A DNA stretch of 64,000 bases from positions 484,625 to 548,624 of the forward strand of contig CAWANI010000009.1 of NCBI GenBank assembly GCA_963783365.1. The letters run 5' to 3'. A program made the translations under genes and the position numbers. This DNA comes from an uncultured delta proteobacterium. GTDB lineage: Bacteria > Desulfobacterota > Desulfuromonadia > Desulfuromonadales > CAWANI01. A model generated the notes under the pieces. It searched no databases. It was not told where the DNA came from and worked only from the letters and a program-made list of their open reading frames with translations. Shown here in pieces: positions 1,286 through 7,499 of the stretch. Every line of letters starts with the position of its first letter. Positions within the stretch are counted from its first letter, which is position 1.

Positions 1286-1945
1286 ATGAACCCCGATCAG
1301 CAGATCGTCCATCAGGTCGAAGGCGTCTTCACCCGGAATGCCCATCTCGCCACAAATCACCGGAGCCTTGAGATCCACTGTGATAGTGGCTACGTAACTT
1401 TGAACGGTACCGTCGATTCCGTGGCCGCCAAGCGGTTGGCTTCTTCACTGGCAGGCTCCGTCACCGGTGTCAAAGGGGTGGAGGATCGCCTGCGGGTCGC
1501 CACTGCCGATCCCATGGGGGATTTGGAAATCGCCGACCACATCCGTCATGCCTTCATTCAGGAAGGAAATCTCGAGGAAGGCGGTATCGAGATCGAAACC
1601 GATCCTGACGGCGGAGTGATTCTGCGCGGGGTGGTCCATTCACTGATTCAGCGTCGCTTGTGCGAGGTTCTCTGCTGGTGGGTGCCGGGCGTCACCGAGG
1701 TGCGCAACCTGCTCGTAGTCAACCCCGCCGAAGAGGATTCCGACGAGGAGCTGCGGGACAACCTCATCACCATCCTGGAGAAGGATGTGCTGGTAAATCC
1801 GAAGAAATTCCGCGTGGAAGTCCAAGGATGTCGGGTGACCCTGCGGGGGCAGGTCGATTCGGAAACGGAGCGGGACGCGGCAGAAAACGACTGTTGGTAC
1901 ACGCCGGGGGTCGAAGACGTGGACAACCGTCTGACGGTCGCCTGA
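1286..1945 (+). CDS. BON-domain protein (three BON repeats)
   Basis: Repeated VTL.G.V.S...A.....GV..V.N.L.V motifs; GGGAG before ATG 1286. Confidence 0.88.
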   Translation: MNPDQQIVHQVEGVFTRNAHLATNHRSLEIHCDSGYVTLNGTVDSVAAKRLASSLAGSVTGVKGVEDRLRVATADPMGDLEIADHIRHAFIQEGNLEEGGIEIETDPDGGVILRGVVHSLIQRRLCEVLCWWVPGVTEVRNLLVVNPAEEDSDEELRDNLITILEKDVLVNPKKFRVEVQGCRVTLRGQVDSETERDAAENDCWYTPGVEDVDNRLTVA

Positions 1946-1973
1946 GCCGAAGGGCTCTGTCTCTTTACCTATG

Positions 1974-3422
1974 CTAGCTGCCTGGTGCCAGATTGGCTGT
2001 GGCGGAGCGGGTGGCCTGTGCGAGCTGCGGCTGGTCCTGCCCGGTCTTTTCGAGTAGGGCCACGAGGGGCCGGATGGCGATCTCGAACCGGTGCCGCTCC
2101 TTTCGGCCGAGGGGGCTGCCGGCCGGAAGGTGAACCGTCAAGGGGTTGCGGGGAGTGCCGTTGACGCGGATTTCAAAATGTAGATGTGGCCCCGTTGTCT
2201 CTCCCGTTTCGCCGACATAGCCGATGATCTGCCCCTGGTGGACGTAACTGCCGCGGTGCAGGCCGCCGGCGAAGCGATGCAGATGCGCATAGCGGGTCGA
2301 ATAGGGGCCGAAATTCTTTATTTTGACCAAGTTGCCGTAGCCGCCGTCCCTTCCGATGTAGGTGATCCGGCCGTTGCCGGCGGCTCTCACCGGTGTCCCG
2401 ATGGGGGCGGCCAGATCCACGCCGTAGTGCGGCCGCCAGACATGGACCACGGGATCGAAGCGGTGCAGGGAAAAGGGCGAGCTGACGCGGGTATAGTGGA
2501 CGGGGGTGCGTATCAGGGTCGGATGCATGGACTTGCCGCTGCTGTCGTAGTATCCGGCATCGCTGCTCGAGCCGGAAAAGCGAAAGGCGTGCACCGACCG
2601 GTCGGGAAGCGTGAGCTCGGCTGCCAGAATGGGGCCCGGGGCCAGCTTCTTTGAGCCCGCAAACCGTTTGTCGTAGACCAGGGCGAAGCGGGTCCCCGGT
2701 TGGATTTGCCGGCGAAAGTCGATGCGCCAGTGGAAAATTCTGACGAACTCGGCAGCCAGGGAAGGGCTGAGACCTGCCTGCTGCAAAGCTTCGGAGAGGG
2801 TTTCGCGGACGACCCCCTGCACTTTGATCTTCTTCGTTTCCGGCTGCAGGTGATCGACCTGGGCCTTCAGACCATCGGGACTATCAGTCACGATCAGGGT
2901 ATCCAGGGGGGTCTCCTGGTACCGCAGGTCGGTGAGGTGGCCGCTCGGATCAAGGCGCAAGCGCAGTTGATCGCCCGGATGGAGAAGCCGCAGGGTTTTT
3001 ACCGCAGGGCCCAGAGTCATCACCCGAGCACATGTCGCTTGGTCCAATCCCGCCCGGGCAAACAGGTTGGACAAGGTATCCCCCGGATCAACCTGGAGCG
3101 TTTGCCACCGGGGAGGGGGGGGCTCCTCATGTGTCTGGACCGGTTGGTTTGCCGCATCGGTGGGGGAGGTTGTTGCTACCGTGGCTGGGGAGGATTCGGA
3201 GGAGGTAGAGAGGGAGAGAGCTTTGCTGGTTGGAGCGGCATCCCGGGAGGCGGGGCGCATAAGAACCGCGGCCGAGAGCACGAGGACGCCGACCAGGCAA
3301 AGGCCGATCCCGAATCGCCAGGGGGATCCGGCCGCTGCGTTTTGCCACGTGCGACGCACCAGCCCCGCTGTGAGATCCGCGCCGACGCGGAAAACCCCGT
3401 CTTTGCGGCCCGGAACCGCCAT
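1974..3422 (-). CDS. M23 family peptidoglycan DD-endopeptidase (OapA/MepM-like)
   Basis: TM anchor, Ser/Thr/Pro linker, LysM-like PGDTLS, HYGVD and GPHLHFE zinc motifs. Confidence 0.9.
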   Translation of the reverse strand: MAVPGRKDGVFRVGADLTAGLVRRTWQNAAAGSPWRFGIGLCLVGVLVLSAAVLMRPASRDAAPTSKALSLSTSSESSPATVATTSPTDAANQPVQTHEEPPPPRWQTLQVDPGDTLSNLFARAGLDQATCARVMTLGPAVKTLRLLHPGDQLRLRLDPSGHLTDLRYQETPLDTLIVTDSPDGLKAQVDHLQPETKKIKVQGVVRETLSEALQQAGLSPSLAAEFVRIFHWRIDFRRQIQPGTRFALVYDKRFAGSKKLAPGPILAAELTLPDRSVHAFRFSGSSSDAGYYDSSGKSMHPTLIRTPVHYTRVSSPFSLHRFDPVVHVWRPHYGVDLAAPIGTPVRAAGNGRITYIGRDGGYGNLVKIKNFGPYSTRYAHLHRFAGGLHRGSYVHQGQIIGYVGETGETTGPHLHFEIRVNGTPRNPLTVHLPAGSPLGRKERHRFEIAIRPLVALLEKTGQDQPQLAQATRSATANLAPGS

Positions 3423-3942
3423 GGGTCGCTTTTGTGCGATCCTCCGTCCACTCCTCAAAAGAAAAAACCCTCCCTGTCCGCAATTCAGGCGGACCGCACT
3501 CCTGGCATCACCGCTGCAAGTCAGCCGGTAGGCGATTTCTTGGCCTGCTTGTTCGTTCGTATCCGGCAGTCTTCATCTCCCATGGTGTTTACAACAGGCG
3601 CCCCCCCTCCGTCAATCCCAAAGATGATGAGCGCCGCGTTATTTTTCTGTGAAAGAGAAAAAAACGGGACCGCCCGCCGACCGGTAATGGAGGCGCAGAG
3701 AAAGGTCAAGGGGCGCCGACTCTCCCCGGTGGCGGCTGAAAACCGTGCCGGCCAGAGGGCAATGGAGGGGATAGAATCCATGAGGTGAAGATAGCGGGTC
3801 GACGGAGGGCGTGCGTCTCTTCCCCCACCTTCCGGCGAGGCGGGTTCGGCGATGGAGTGCATCGGCGCCCTTTTCCTTCCCGGAAAAAGGGCGGATCGTT
3901 CCCGGGCCCGGCAGAGCCGCGGATACGGAAGTATCTCTTTGG

Positions 3943-4419
3943 TCAGACCGGGGTCAATTCCTGGCGATGCTCCCATAGTCCGTGAAGATTGCAGTATTCG
4001 CGGACGATCAGGGTCACCGGCTTATCCAGCTTCAGGGTAAAGGTTGCCTCCGGCTCGTTCAACTCGGGCCAGAATTCGCCCCGTCCGACAGGAGCGTTTC
4101 CAGCGAACAGATTTACCCAGTGAATGTAATGATCGGGGACCATGGGATGCAGGGTTTCGCCGATCGCGACCGAGACCCGAAAAGGTTTCCCCGCACGGAT
4201 TTTCTCGTGAACGGTGATGACCGGGACGTGAAGTTTATCGAGTGGGGTGGAGGGCGTTTTGGCCCGGTTGATCCCCTCAAAAAGCGACGGGTCGACCTTG
4301 TTGTAGGTCATCAGCTTGCCCCCTTCGCTACGGGCGAAAGCTGCAGGGGCTCCGGCCAGTATCCCACCGGTGAGCAGGGCTGAATTCATTAGAAAATCGC
4401 GGCGTTTCATCGGATTCAT
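3943..4419 (-). CDS. Superoxide reductase (neelaredoxin-type domain) with twin-arginine signal peptide
   Basis: KRRDFL...AFA signal; ligand motifs HVP, HPM...HYI.W, CNLHGLW; GGAG upstream. Confidence 0.85.
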   Translation of the reverse strand: MNPMKRRDFLMNSALLTGGILAGAPAAFARSEGGKLMTYNKVDPSLFEGINRAKTPSTPLDKLHVPVITVHEKIRAGKPFRVSVAIGETLHPMVPDHYIHWVNLFAGNAPVGRGEFWPELNEPEATFTLKLDKPVTLIVREYCNLHGLWEHRQELTPV

Positions 4420-4453
4420 GGGCCTCTCCTTTCTGGGGTCATGGGTCAGGAGG

Positions 4454-4531
4454 ACTATAGCGCGCCGTGGTGGACAGTCAAGGCAGGAGCGGGAAAAAGT
4501 CTTGTCGAACCGCAGAACAATGCTATATACT
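4454..4531. promoter_or_regulatory. Divergent sigma70-like promoters (SOR gene and small ORF)
   Basis: Minus strand TTGACT-16nt-TATAGT (4481-4454); plus strand TTGTCG-16nt-TATATA with TG extended -10 (4502-4529). Confidence 0.5.
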
Positions 4532-4560
4532 GAAAGGACGATTATTTGGAGGTATAAACG

Positions 4561-4710
4561 ATGGACATTCTCGCTCTTCTCGGCGTTCTCGCCGTCTGGT
4601 TCATTCTGAATCGCTGGGTTCTGCCCAAGATGGGAATCCAGACCTGAATGGCAGACAGCTGCACCCTTCCCGTGCGGAAGGAAGGTAAAGAAAAAAAAGA
4701 GGAAGATTAG
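4561..4710 (+). CDS. Small single-pass membrane protein, candidate selenoprotein (TGA at codon 29)
   Basis: GGAGGT RBS 7 nt before ATG; MDILALLGVLAVWFILNRWVLPKMGIQT-TGA-MADSCTLPVRKEGKEKKEED-TAG; hairpin 4665-4681 after the TGA. Confidence 0.72.
4665..4681 (+). other. Putative bacterial SECIS hairpin
   Basis: CCTTCC/GGAAGG stem, loop CGTGC, 23 nt between TGA (4645-4647) and loop. Confidence 0.55.
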
Positions 4711-4985
4711 TAGGCTATTAATTCTAAAGCCTACAAAGTCACCCATGCAATCACTCTTTGGGTGTCTGTCACACCAAGAAATAGATACGGGGTCAAATAG
4801 ACTCGGGGTCGGGCTTGTCGTGGCAGAGTATTGTACGGATTTATATTTTTCAGTAACGTTATATTTCTCCTTAAAATCGCTCCTTGCCGTCCGATTCCTC
4901 GACGTTTCCGCCGAACTCGAAGCGCACCGCATTGCTCCTCAAGGCGCCGCGGGCCGAAATCCCCCTTTGCAAAGAAGCGAAGACC

Positions 4986-7131
4986 TCATCCGCGCCGCCA
5001 GGCGTGGAAGCGTTCCACCCAGCGCAGCAGTTGTTGCGGAGCATGGTCCCGCTTCCAGACTCCGGCCGCCATTTTGTTCGCCTCGGCCAGAGTCGGGTAG
5101 GCGTGGATCGTGCCGAGGATCTTGTTCAGGCCGAGGCAGTGCTTCATCGCCAGGACGAATTCGGCGAGCAGGTCCCCGGCATGGTCGCCGACGATCGTCA
5201 CGCCGAGGATTTTGTCTTTGCCGGGCGGGGTTAGAACCTTGACCCAGCCGCGCTCCTCCCCCTCGGCGATCGCCCGGTCGAGCTCTTCCAGCTCGAAGCG
5301 GGCGACCTCGAAGGGGACTTTCTGCTGCCGGGCCTCGGCCTCGTTGAGACCGACGCGGGCCACTTCGGGGTCGGTGAAGGTACACCAGGGGATGACCCGG
5401 TAGTCGGCCCGGAATTTTTTGAGCTGGCCGAACAGGGCGTTGACCGCCGCGTACCAGGCCTGGTGGGCGGCGGTATGGGTGAACTGGTAGGGGCCGGCCA
5501 CGTCCCCGGCGCAGAAGATGTTCGGAAAATTGGTGCGCAAAAAGGGGTCGGCGTCGATGGTGCCGCGCTCATTGAGGCGCACCCCCAGCTCCTCCAGGCC
5601 GAACCCCTGGTGTGGGGCTTGCGGCCGACGGCGACCAGAATGGCATCGAAGGGGACCTCGACCCGCTCGCCGTCCCGCTCGCAGACCAGGAGCTTACTCT
5701 CCCCCTCGAACAGCACCTCCTTGGCGGCGTGACCGGTCAGCACCCGCACCCCTTCGGCCTCGAAGCGGCTCCGGATGAATGCGGCGACCTCCGCGTCCTC
5801 GCGCCCCATGCAGCTGCGGCACCATCTCCACCTGGGTGACTTGGCGAGCCGAGGCGGGCGAAGGCCTGGGTCATCTCGCAGCCGATGGGGCCGCCGCCGA
5901 GGACCACCAGCCGCTCGGGCCGCTGGCGCAGCTGCCAGAGGTTGTCCGAGGTCAGATAGTCGATCCGGTCGAGCCCGGGAATCGGCGGCACCAAGGGGGA
6001 GGCGCCGGTGGCGAGGATGATGGCCCGGGTGGTCAGGGTGCGGCCGTTCACTTCGACGGTGTAGGGGGAGGTGATGCGGGCCTCGCCAGCTAATCACCTC
6101 GACGCCCAGGTCGCGTGTAGCGCTCGACCGAATCGTGGGGTTCGACCTTGCGGATCACCGTCTGCACCCGCTCCATGACGGCACGAAGTCGATCGCGGGG
6201 GGCTCTCATCGAGGCCGAACTCCGCCCCCCGCCGCCGATAGGCGCGCCATTTTGGCGCTGCGGATCAGCGCCTTGCTCGGCACGCAGCCGGTGTTGAGGC
6301 AGTCGCCCCCCATCCGGTGCTTTTCGATCAGGGCGACCTTCGCCTTCACGGCCGCGGCGATGTAGCTGGTGACCAGCCCCGCGCTGCCGGCGCCGATCAC
6401 CACCAGGTTGTAGTCGAAGCGTTTCGGCTTGGGAAACCCGGCCAGGCTTTGGCGCGACTTGAACACGTCGAGAACCTTTTTGGCCAGCAGCGGGAAGAGC
6501 CCGAGCAGGACGAAGGAGAGGAGCAGCCCGGGGGAGAGGATGCCGGAGAGATGTTCGATCCTGGCCGAGCTGGGTGCCGGCGTTGACGTAGACCGCCGTG
6601 CCCGCCAGCATGCCGAGCTGGCTGACCCAGTAGAAGGTCCAGGTCCGGCATCGGGGTCAGACCCATGACCAGGTTGATGACGAAGAAGGGGAAGAGGGGA
6701 ACCAGCCGCAGGGAAAAGAGGTAGAAGGCGCCTTCCCGTTCGATGCCGGCGTTGACGGTCTTAAGCCGCTCGCCGAAACGCTCCTGCACCCAGTCGCGCA
6801 GCAGAAAACGGCTGACCAGAAAGGCCAGGGTGGCGCCGATGGTGCTGGCGAAGGAGACGACCACCAGCGCCGGCCAGAAGCCGAACAGGGCGCCGCCGGC
6901 CAGGGTCATGACCGCCGCGCCGGGCAGCGACAGGGCGGTGACGGCGAGGTAGAGGAGGAAGTACGCGGCCAAAGTCATCAGTCGATGGGCGGCGTAGTAG
7001 CCTTGAAACGCCTCCTGCCGTGCCTTGAGCTCGGCCAGGGTCAGAAAGCGTTGTAAATCCAGGGCGAAAAAGAGCCCGATCAGCACGGCAAGAACAATGA
7101 AAATGACGATTTTTTTCCAGCGACCTGCCAT
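4986..7131 (-). CDS. DedA/TVP38 membrane domain fused to FAD-dependent pyridine nucleotide-disulfide oxidoreductase (multiple frameshifts)
   Basis: TALSLPGA..LAGGALFG, LRLVPLFPFF; VIGAGSAG, GGDCLNTGCVPSK, LGGGPIGCE, FTDPEVARVG, IHAYPTLAE across frames. Confidence 0.88.
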
Positions 7132-7190
7132 GATGACCTCCTGAAGCTCCCCTGGAGAAGCAGCCTCCCCCGGGGCACAACCCGGATTTT

Positions 7191-7499
7191 TTATTTTCCC
7201 TCTGAACAACTGGCGCCGCAGACAAAACATGAGTAACAGCGGTGATGGCCGAGCAGAACACGCCGCGCCATCGCCTCGTGCAACGTTTCGCCAAGATCAT
7301 AGCTTTTGACATCGTCGACCAGGGTACAAGCATAGACCCCGCATTGACCGTTCTTCCGGACAATCATTTTACTGAAACTGCACATAAAAGCCGCGCGCTG
7401 CCCGGCGCTCAGGTAGCGGGTCATGCAGGTTTCGGTAATTTCCGGACCCATGGGAAGCGCGCCGTTCAGATGATTTGTTGGGGATTGAATCCTCTGCCG
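7191..7499 (-). pseudogene. Cys-rich C-terminal remnant resembling a radical SAM protein tail
   Basis: PEITETC...FMCSFSKMIV...YACTLVDD...HHRCYSCFVCGASCSE; no CxxxCxxC core and no room upstream. Confidence 0.5.

Follow-up and report, generated by a model that had tools for sequence, protein, structure and literature searches.

A 49-codon gene with a conserved in-frame UGA is predicted to encode a membrane-anchored selenocysteine protein in Desulfuromonadia

Does a TGA triplet that closes a 28-residue open reading frame (ORF) end translation, or does it specify selenocysteine (Sec, U) inside a longer protein? The question is raised by positions 4561–4710 of a 64,000-nucleotide stretch of DNA, here called the window, from an uncultured delta proteobacterium of the order Desulfuromonadales, class Desulfuromonadia (contig CAWANI010000009.1, positions 484,625–548,624, forward strand). 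A translation table 11 ORF listing splits the locus into ORFs of 28 and 20 amino acids, and in the window an ATG directly follows the TGA. A first-pass annotation, made from the letters alone, had joined the two parts into a single gene for a tiny membrane selenoprotein. We conclude that this 49-codon gene very probably encodes a membrane-anchored selenocysteine protein in which the UGA of codon 29 is read as Sec, a prediction based on comparison of sequences. The ORF starts at ATG 4561 and runs through MDILALLGVLAVWFILNRWVLPKMGIQT, the TGA, MADSC and the tail TLPVRKEGKEKKEED to a TAG; the part beyond the TGA reads MADSCTLPVRKEGKEKKEED, followed by TAG-TAG. Every element that the annotation had listed, namely a promoter-like site, a ribosome-binding site (RBS), a helix, T-TGA-MADSC, a charged tail, TAG TAG and a hairpin resembling a bacterial selenocysteine insertion sequence (bSECIS), is present at this locus:

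4502–4531, + strand: promoter-like site of the sigma-70 type, TTGTCG-18 nt-TATACT (consensus scan, 9 of 12 matches)
4548–4553, + strand: RBS GGAGGT, 7 nt 5' of the ATG
4561–4710, + strand: whole gene, 49 codons, UGA as codon 29, stop TAG (translation)
4564–4629, + strand: predicted single transmembrane helix, residues 2–23, with a conserved N-R-W-x-L-P-[KR]-x-G interface motif at its end (AlphaFold2, alignment)
4645–4647, + strand: in-frame TGA, predicted selenocysteine codon U29
4660–4662, + strand: Cys34, the putative partner of U29 (U-x4-C), invariant
4665–4681, + strand: bSECIS-type hairpin within the ORF, overlapping codons 35–41 (T-L-P-V-R-K-E)
4672–4707, + strand: Lys/Glu/Asp-rich tail, sequence not conserved, frame open, low predicted local distance difference test score (pLDDT)
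4711–4713, + strand: second TAG, directly after the first (4708–4710)

We examined whether the gene is conserved together with its TGA by searching whole genomes in six frames, stops read through, with the read-through peptide as query. The order was sampled by 41 genomes, the window's own and 40 relatives, and gave 39 matches (E ≤1.3e-8) in 38 of the 41 genomes (27 families); the relatives G003, G022 and G027 had no such match in this search. Each match contains exactly one in-frame TGA, with similarity extending to query residue 41–49, and all 39 loci (L019–L057) show the same succession of a helix, N-R-W-x-L-P-[KR]-x-G-x-x-T, TGA, [LMI]-[SA]-x-x-C and a charged tail. An alignment of 34 of these sequences (A1) left out L039 as a near-duplicate of L021, L044 for an undetermined base (N), L046 and L049, which were not yet parsed, and L056, which is cut by a contig end; W13, W19, L21, P22, G25, U29 and C34 are invariant in it. 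The A1 profile matches 263 of 301 genomes of the class. The in-frame TGA is found in 150 of the 150 class matches listed, beyond which there are 121 further matches, and it stands at the position of codon 29 in 59 of 59 parsed class loci. Sister orders have Y or F in place of W19 and an altered peptide after the Cys, but they keep the TGA. The class-typical form also occurs in metagenome-assembled genomes (MAGs) of Geopsychrobacter (L141 and L145), the nearest titled loci. The first-pass annotation had asked of homologues that position 29 be TGA or Cys and that the downstream Cys be conserved, and this is what they show, the x4-C being invariant. Homology runs past the TGA, and TAA or TAG occupies the site in no parsed orthologue.

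The part behind the TGA bears the marks of translation. Codons were analyzed in 58 sequences, of which 20 belong to sister orders and 38 to the order itself, L044 being excluded because of its N. Column entropies at the three codon positions are 0.82/0.46/1.41 in the 20 codons before the TGA and 0.77/0.43/1.31 in the five codons after it. Serine columns use both TCN and AGY codons, and of the 58 sequences 41 encode Cys34 by TGC and 17 by TGT. Frame 0 stays open for 17–26 codons past the TGA in all 59 loci. The coding signature thus carries on in frame after the TGA and is equal to that before it. These data bear on a second arrangement, in which two coupled micro-ORFs are translated, the first ending at the TGA as a 28-residue peptide and an ATG restart yielding a 20-residue one (MADSC...). 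The ATG of the window, shared by 30 of the 58 sequences, is what such a restart would use. The other 28 have CTN (CTT, CTC, CTG or CTA), ATC or AGG at that place, hence none of ATG, GTG and TTG, yet they preserve x-S-D-x-C in a frame that stays open. A restart is thereby ruled out. The Cys homologues described below are moreover single polypeptides. A TGA–ATG coupled pair, which the annotation had named as the fallback, therefore fails as an explanation, and we regard it as exceedingly improbable.

If UGA is to be decoded as Sec, a bSECIS is expected close behind it. The published model (PMC13188914, legend of Fig. 2) has a loop of 3–9 nt, a stem of 4–16 bp, a G in the first two loop positions, 16–37 nt between the UGA and the loop, and a minimum free energy of −7.5 kcal/mol or lower. 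The hairpin that the first-pass annotation had picked out in the window fits this model: CCTTCC (4665–4670) pairs with GGAAGG (4676–4681) in a 6-bp stem around the 5-nt loop CGTGC (4671–4675; CGUGC in RNA), the hairpin starting 17 nt and the loop 23 nt after the TGA.

We found the corresponding structure throughout the class. A perfect hairpin of 5–9 bp is present in 55 of 58 class members, the other three having imperfect stems, and a hairpin scoring 16 or more in 48 of the 58. This frequency is far above chance: in the controls, mononucleotide shuffles reach this score in a mean of 1.2 of 58 sequences (maximum 5), as do 8% of the 2732 ORFs of at least 250 codons in the own genome that end in TGA. 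The class loops begin 21–24 nt after the TGA, and in all of them (CGUGC, GUU, GGC, GUG and others) a G stands at loop position 1 or 2. The stems themselves differ, with 25 distinct 5' arms. Their changes are compensated, as where CTT...AAG (L-P-V-R-K) turns into CTC...GAG (L-P-V-R-E), and the hairpin is kept where the peptide becomes LPRDGSK, SPAARE, LEDRG or LGDRG. In an ungapped alignment (A2), pair 24–34 is CG in 26, UA in 26 and UG in 5 sequences and unpaired in none. The conserved L-P-V-R-K after Cys34 is thus largely a by-product of the RNA hairpin and not a protein motif. An Rfam search of 4300–5000 at E up to 1 gave no match, and neither a U-tract nor a terminator-like site was found at the locus.

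One locus of the order, L044 (G019:C27), has an irregularity of its own: an N and a duplicated ...GTACGGGAGGAG... stretch lie just after the hairpin, inside the SECIS region of the gene. The likely cause is an artefact of assembly or scaffolding at the hairpin.

The family extends well beyond the class, and there it exists in Sec and Cys forms. A profile search of 1.84 billion representative proteins (E ≤0.001) returned 965 matches with E down to 1e-19. Many are full-length ...LNRWVLPxFGxxTCMSGxC... proteins, and many others are truncations of 28–29 amino acids named 'hypothetical protein' at most. A few carry W at the Sec site, which presumably stems from gene calling with TGA read as Trp. 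A protein search with the single sequence gave no candidates, the matches coming from alignment-based searches alone; in the ESM Atlas, one Planctomycetota cluster (at 0.84) was the sole match. We then scanned an alignment of Cys forms (A3), in which Cys34 is again invariant, against one genome per species, and at least 530 of 600 candidate stretches were confirmed. The best 80 stretches are mostly from Planctomycetota, with others from Syntrophobacterales, Acidobacteriota, Gemmatimonadaceae, Spirochaetia and Myxococcales MAGs. From these 80, 79 loci were parsed, and the codon at the Sec site is TGA in 55, TGC in 19, TGT in 4 and TAT (Tyr; L147) in 1. A hairpin scoring at least 16 lies behind 42 of 54 TGA forms (the remaining TGA locus is near a contig end) and behind 2 of 24 Cys or other forms, so the hairpin goes with the TGA and not with the Cys codons. 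All 51 hairpins found outside the class have a G in the first two loop positions.

One of the Cys forms, L129 (TGC; about 4001–4060), bears the hairpin GTGCGGT/GTC/ACCGCAC, which in L149 and L152, both Sec forms, stands after the TGA. In L129 it has the look of a fossil SECIS left by a recent Sec-to-Cys change.

Much of this speaks to a first alternative, that the UGA is a plain stop, the product a 28-residue membrane peptide and the conserved part behind it a noncoding RNA element, for instance a hairpin for stability or termination. The table 11 ORF and the many 28–29-residue database calls are just what this alternative would give. Bacterial Sec insertion is usually inefficient, and some truncated peptide is likely to be made in any case. 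A noncoding element accounts poorly, however, for the codon-wise variation, around an invariant Cys codon, of the 15 nt that lead from the TGA to the hairpin, or for a frame that remains open in every parsed class locus. The Cys homologues read straight through, the hairpin is lost where the TGA has become TGC or TGT, and nothing at the locus resembles a terminator. We consider a plain stop quite unlikely.

Selenocysteine insertion depends on a machinery for which the annotation had proposed to check the genome, and here the outcome is mixed. The own assembly (36 contigs, 86.5% complete) contains a tRNA-Sec (selC) with anticodon TCA, scoring 72.7 bits against a gathering score of 47, and directly upstream of it YedF (TIGR03527; 199.5 bits against a cut-off of 110), the two lying at G000:C5:36994–37711 (L009 879–1596). 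It also contains an FdhA-type gene with TGA at the canonical ENQARI-U-HSS site (G000:C31:34372–35673, − strand), which is a second selenoprotein gene of this genome. The machinery genes selA, selB and selD were not found, as set out below. Among the 40 relatives examined, SelB is above its cut-off in 35 of the 37 that hold the gene. Three relatives are without the gene. SelB is present in G003 and G022, whereas G027, which has neither, is the one complete relative that lacks SelB.

Several results weigh against the Sec interpretation. The window's fold is unremarkable on its own: a 46-nt segment folds at −13.6 kcal/mol (z = −1.42), and its fold is equalled by 20 of 200 shuffles. The bare 17-mer hairpin, at −7.4 kcal/mol, is borderline against the −7.5 limit of the model (−8.9 with 3-nt flanks). 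The case consequently rests on the comparison between genomes. In the ungapped alignment A2, 72.9% of cells are paired and slid controls are similar on some measures; these whole-structure figures are diluted because the hairpin register shifts by 1–3 nt between lineages, and we therefore preferred hairpin finding in each sequence, with controls, to the ungapped pair count. Kinship may inflate the association of hairpin and TGA, the Cys forms clustering in certain lineages. Two gene-bearing relatives, G007 (670 contigs) and G013 (65% complete), have no SelB match. Finally, searches of the own 86.5%-complete assembly found neither selA (TIGR00474, PF03841) nor selB (TIGR00475, PF09107) nor selD (TIGR00476), and that all three should be missing is uncomfortable. 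With the assembly at this completeness and in 36 contigs, their non-detection does not prove absence.

The same gap would suit a plain stop, and it bears on two further alternatives. In the first, the UGA is read through without Sec, either by a near-cognate tRNA (Trp or Cys) under stimulation by the hairpin or through a lineage-wide reassignment of UGA. The W at the site in some database calls would agree with this, as would the failure to find the three genes. Against it stand the 2732 long ORFs of the own genome that end in TGA, by which UGA is a normal stop there, the SelB-type features of the hairpin (a small loop at a fixed spacing, with an early G that is followed by G or U), the specific alternation of the site with Cys and the presence of SelB in nearly all gene-bearing relatives. 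We judge such read-through very unlikely. In the second, the gene is a relic: selA, selB and selD have been lost from this genome, and the TGA now truncates a former Sec protein. Three machinery genes missing from one assembly is the pattern that such a loss would leave. The genome has nevertheless retained tRNA-Sec, YedF, FdhA with an intact TGA, and the present gene with an intact SECIS and tail, whereas the nearest complete relative without SelB (G027) has lost the gene entirely. We read the gap as incompleteness of the assembly and think a real loss, and with it a relic, unlikely.

Taking the UGA as a Sec codon, the locus would work as follows. Positions 4561–4710 would form a gene with a transcript of its own, and its product would be a single-pass membrane protein of 49 residues. 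The hairpin at 4665–4681, within the frame, would recruit SelB carrying Sec-tRNA(Sec), and the ribosome would go on through M-A-D-S-C and the charged tail to the double TAG. The product would have a short N-terminus, a helix (residues 2–23), N-R-W-x-L-P-K-x-G-x-x-T at the membrane surface and the U-x4-C directly after it. Expression signals are shared with relatives: CTTGC... about 17 nt ...TATATAT, read by eye, stands at the same distance from the start codon, and nearly all of them have a GGAGG-like site in front of it. For the relative L074 (gene at about 198 to 350), contigs from two metatranscriptome studies span the whole ORF including the part after the TGA; X1 covers 1–351, with adapter letters right after 351, and X4 covers 77–337. 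The X3 contig covers only 385–535, outside the gene. These contigs are a weak hint of expression, since contigs from RNA libraries can contain DNA.

AlphaFold2 with the family alignment gives a helix at residues 2–23 (block pLDDT 92 and 88) and a low-confidence coil for the remainder. By the positive-inside rule of membrane topology, with R18 and K23 after the helix and a charged tail, we infer that the U-x4-C pair and the tail lie on the cytoplasmic side. Most likely the pair alternates between a selenol/thiol and a selenenylsulfide state, or else it serves as a carrier of sulfane sulfur or of a metal; the redox function that the first-pass annotation had assigned is likewise presumptive. A lipoprotein signal peptide was considered for the N-terminal part and rejected, there being no lipobox and no positive N-region.

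Clues to a cellular role come from the neighborhoods outside the class. Rhodanese fusions (Pyr_redox_2+Rhodanese or Lactamase_B+Rhodanese) lie within 2.5 kb in 39 of the 79 loci and are the immediate same-strand neighbor in 30; ArsR-type genes are near 20 loci, thioredoxin near 13, TauE near 11 and SQR-like genes near 7. An operon that recurs in Planctomycetota (L086, L101, L104, L155 and others; about 1500–7000 in each locus) has the micro-protein gene on the same strand. It comprises an ArsR-type regulator, a small rhodanese protein, a thioredoxin and a rhodanese fusion whose partner is either a flavoprotein disulfide reductase or a protein of the metallo-beta-lactamase fold, and further the micro-protein, TauE, an SQR-like flavoprotein and a methyltransferase–DsrE fusion. 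Sec and Cys forms both occur within such operons, which we take to be of the persulfide/sulfide-response type named BigR/cst-like. They point to chemistry of a thiol or selenol on sulfane sulfur or sulfite at the membrane, and tentatively the protein may be a membrane-bound relay in persulfide, polysulfide or sulfite handling. A second operon type consists of an extracytoplasmic-function (ECF) sigma factor, the micro-protein, a small rhodanese-cluster ORF and resistance–nodulation–division (RND) efflux genes.

Two fused forms also bear on function. P0133 (171 aa) joins a transmembrane segment and a T-C-M-S-G-A-C module to a full thioredoxin, and in P0152 (105 aa) the C-terminal part of a Thioredoxin_3 domain continues into the module as far as the TGA site, which may be a gene-calling artefact. 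A search for longer fused forms gave only two matches, both apparently an upstream ORF run into the module. The fusions are hence a hint only.

The functional proposal has its own points against it. In the own order the gene sits in no sulfur operon, and the guess is transferred from another phylum by guilt by association. The neighborhood counts are raw counts, and the neighbor gene calls are rough, made with a crude GC3 filter against shadow ORFs of G+C-rich DNA. For the window's gene the operon context outside the class supports a reading as 'works with' sulfur genes, not as membership among them. More speculatively still, the protein might be among the smallest bacterial selenoproteins and near-universal in the class, a selenol/thiol relay that passes sulfane sulfur or selenium at the inner membrane face between SQR/polysulfide chemistry, rhodanese-fused reductases or dioxygenases and TauE-type exporters, with its LPVRK written by the RNA; we find this picture as a whole rather doubtful.

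Within the order, the surroundings are of another kind. A divergent gene with a twin-arginine (TAT) signal and a desulfoferrodoxin domain is the neighbor in 10 of 39 loci, including the window's, and one further locus has it downstream. In the window it occupies 3943–4481 (− strand); its product has 158 residues, and the domain is the desulfoferrodoxin ferrous-iron domain (PF01880). Its promoter-like site, TTGACT-16-TATAGT (4481–4454), is conserved in the 10 loci (on the + strand GTCAAG...CTATAG). A convergent cardiolipin synthase gene (cls) is found in 12 loci, and Usp, BON and TRAP genes are also neighbors. A cis-acting leader peptide was considered and rejected, the downstream gene being convergent in the window and in 12 relatives' loci.

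The convergent downstream gene of the window (4986–7230, − strand) encodes a VTT/DedA-type membrane domain and, after it, a class I pyridine nucleotide-disulfide oxidoreductase with the sequence GGDCLNTGCVPSK. The gene is broken up into four or more ORFs that lie in different frames (6397–7230, 6206–6466, 5737–6051 and 4986–5582), and is either a decaying gene or the product of indel errors in the assembly.

We next asked whether the family is already on record. In NCBIfam 20.0 no family matches the window's protein at E up to 10 (TsoA, NF045695, included), and the sole Pfam-A match is a chance one (12.5 bits against a cut-off of 25). For ten Cys homologues, too, Pfam and NCBIfam (the latter at E up to 1) gave no match save for the fused thioredoxin of P0133. 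Among the 119 selenoprotein families in Table 1 of a May 2026 review (PMC13188914), none is a single-pass membrane protein with U-x4-C. The gene is absent from the accessible parts of the older Geobacter selenoproteome lists (PMC1794560 tables, PMC1242214, PMC1914089), and the accessible portion of the Haft and Gwadz preprint makes no mention of the family. A predictor benchmark reports, in Table 2 (PMC12013277), zero new selenoprotein genes beyond its 'known' set in three Desulfuromonadia genomes. A full-text literature search gave nothing relevant on the motif or on Planctomycetes, rhodanese or TauE selenoproteins, and supplements could in principle list the family. This is, hence, a widespread micro-protein family without a model in the family libraries and the selenoprotein catalogue compared. 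It may have been overlooked because gene callers stop at UGA.

If our interpretation is right, the selenoproteome of every class member with the gene would be one gene larger than listed, as would those of many Planctomycetota and other lineages. The class would include well-studied metal- and sulfur-reducing bacteria and environmentally important anaerobes. The family would also mark a blind spot of homology-driven selenoprotein discovery, its ORF being below the length limits of callers and no named Cys family serving as an anchor. It could provide a very small and genetically tractable model for Sec insertion, for Sec-to-Cys exchange (as at L129) and for dual RNA/protein coding, and the Planctomycetota operon context would offer a testable link of selenium use to reactive sulfur handling at the membrane.

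How does the predicted protein compare with known systems? To judge from its entry in Table 1 of PMC13188914, TsoA (LULAxC, NF045695) is likewise an uncharacterised selenoprotein with a short Sec...Cys motif, and differs in its U-x3-C spacing and flanking residues. MerT-type selenoproteins of mercuric transport (PF02411), as they appear in the same table and in the accessible part of a preprint (bioRxiv 10.1101/2022.07.06.499078), are also membrane proteins with a Sec/Cys pair by a helix. The window's protein, unlike these, has no Pfam match, is built on a single helix where they have several, and is encoded away from any mer genes.

A further comparison is with the family's own Cys forms, uncharacterised 'hypothetical' proteins mostly from Planctomycetota, which share the helix, N-R-W-x-L-P-x-x-G-x-x-T and the x4-C spacing in clear homology. 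They differ in having Cys for Sec, no hairpin after the codon and longer, unrelated tails, and rhodanese/TauE/ArsR operons are often their setting; the gene of the window is solitary. A redox-active C-x4-C disulfide is known from class I pyridine nucleotide-disulfide oxidoreductases, which shows that such a spacing can form a reversible disulfide; the motif is visible in the window's neighboring ORF at 6206–6466 (GGDCLNTGCVPSK). The two share the i, i+5 spacing, a T/G before the first Cys and a G before the second (G-x-x-T-C-M-S-G-x-C). The window's protein has no homology to these enzymes and no flavin domain, and the likeness is a lead only.

The prototype of bacterial selenoprotein genes with an intragenic SECIS is E. 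coli fdhF. Like SECIS-decoded genes in general, the window's gene has an in-frame UGA, a downstream stem-loop inside the ORF, an early loop G and a spacing of 21–24 nt, together with Cys homologues at the Sec position, a tRNA-Sec in its own genome and SelB in nearly all relatives that hold the gene. It departs from them in its host, a 49-residue single-pass membrane protein of an undescribed family, and in its motif, U-x4-C where UxxC or CxxU is usual. It also differs in that its putative SECIS fills one third of the coding sequence after the UGA and would dictate the peptide there.

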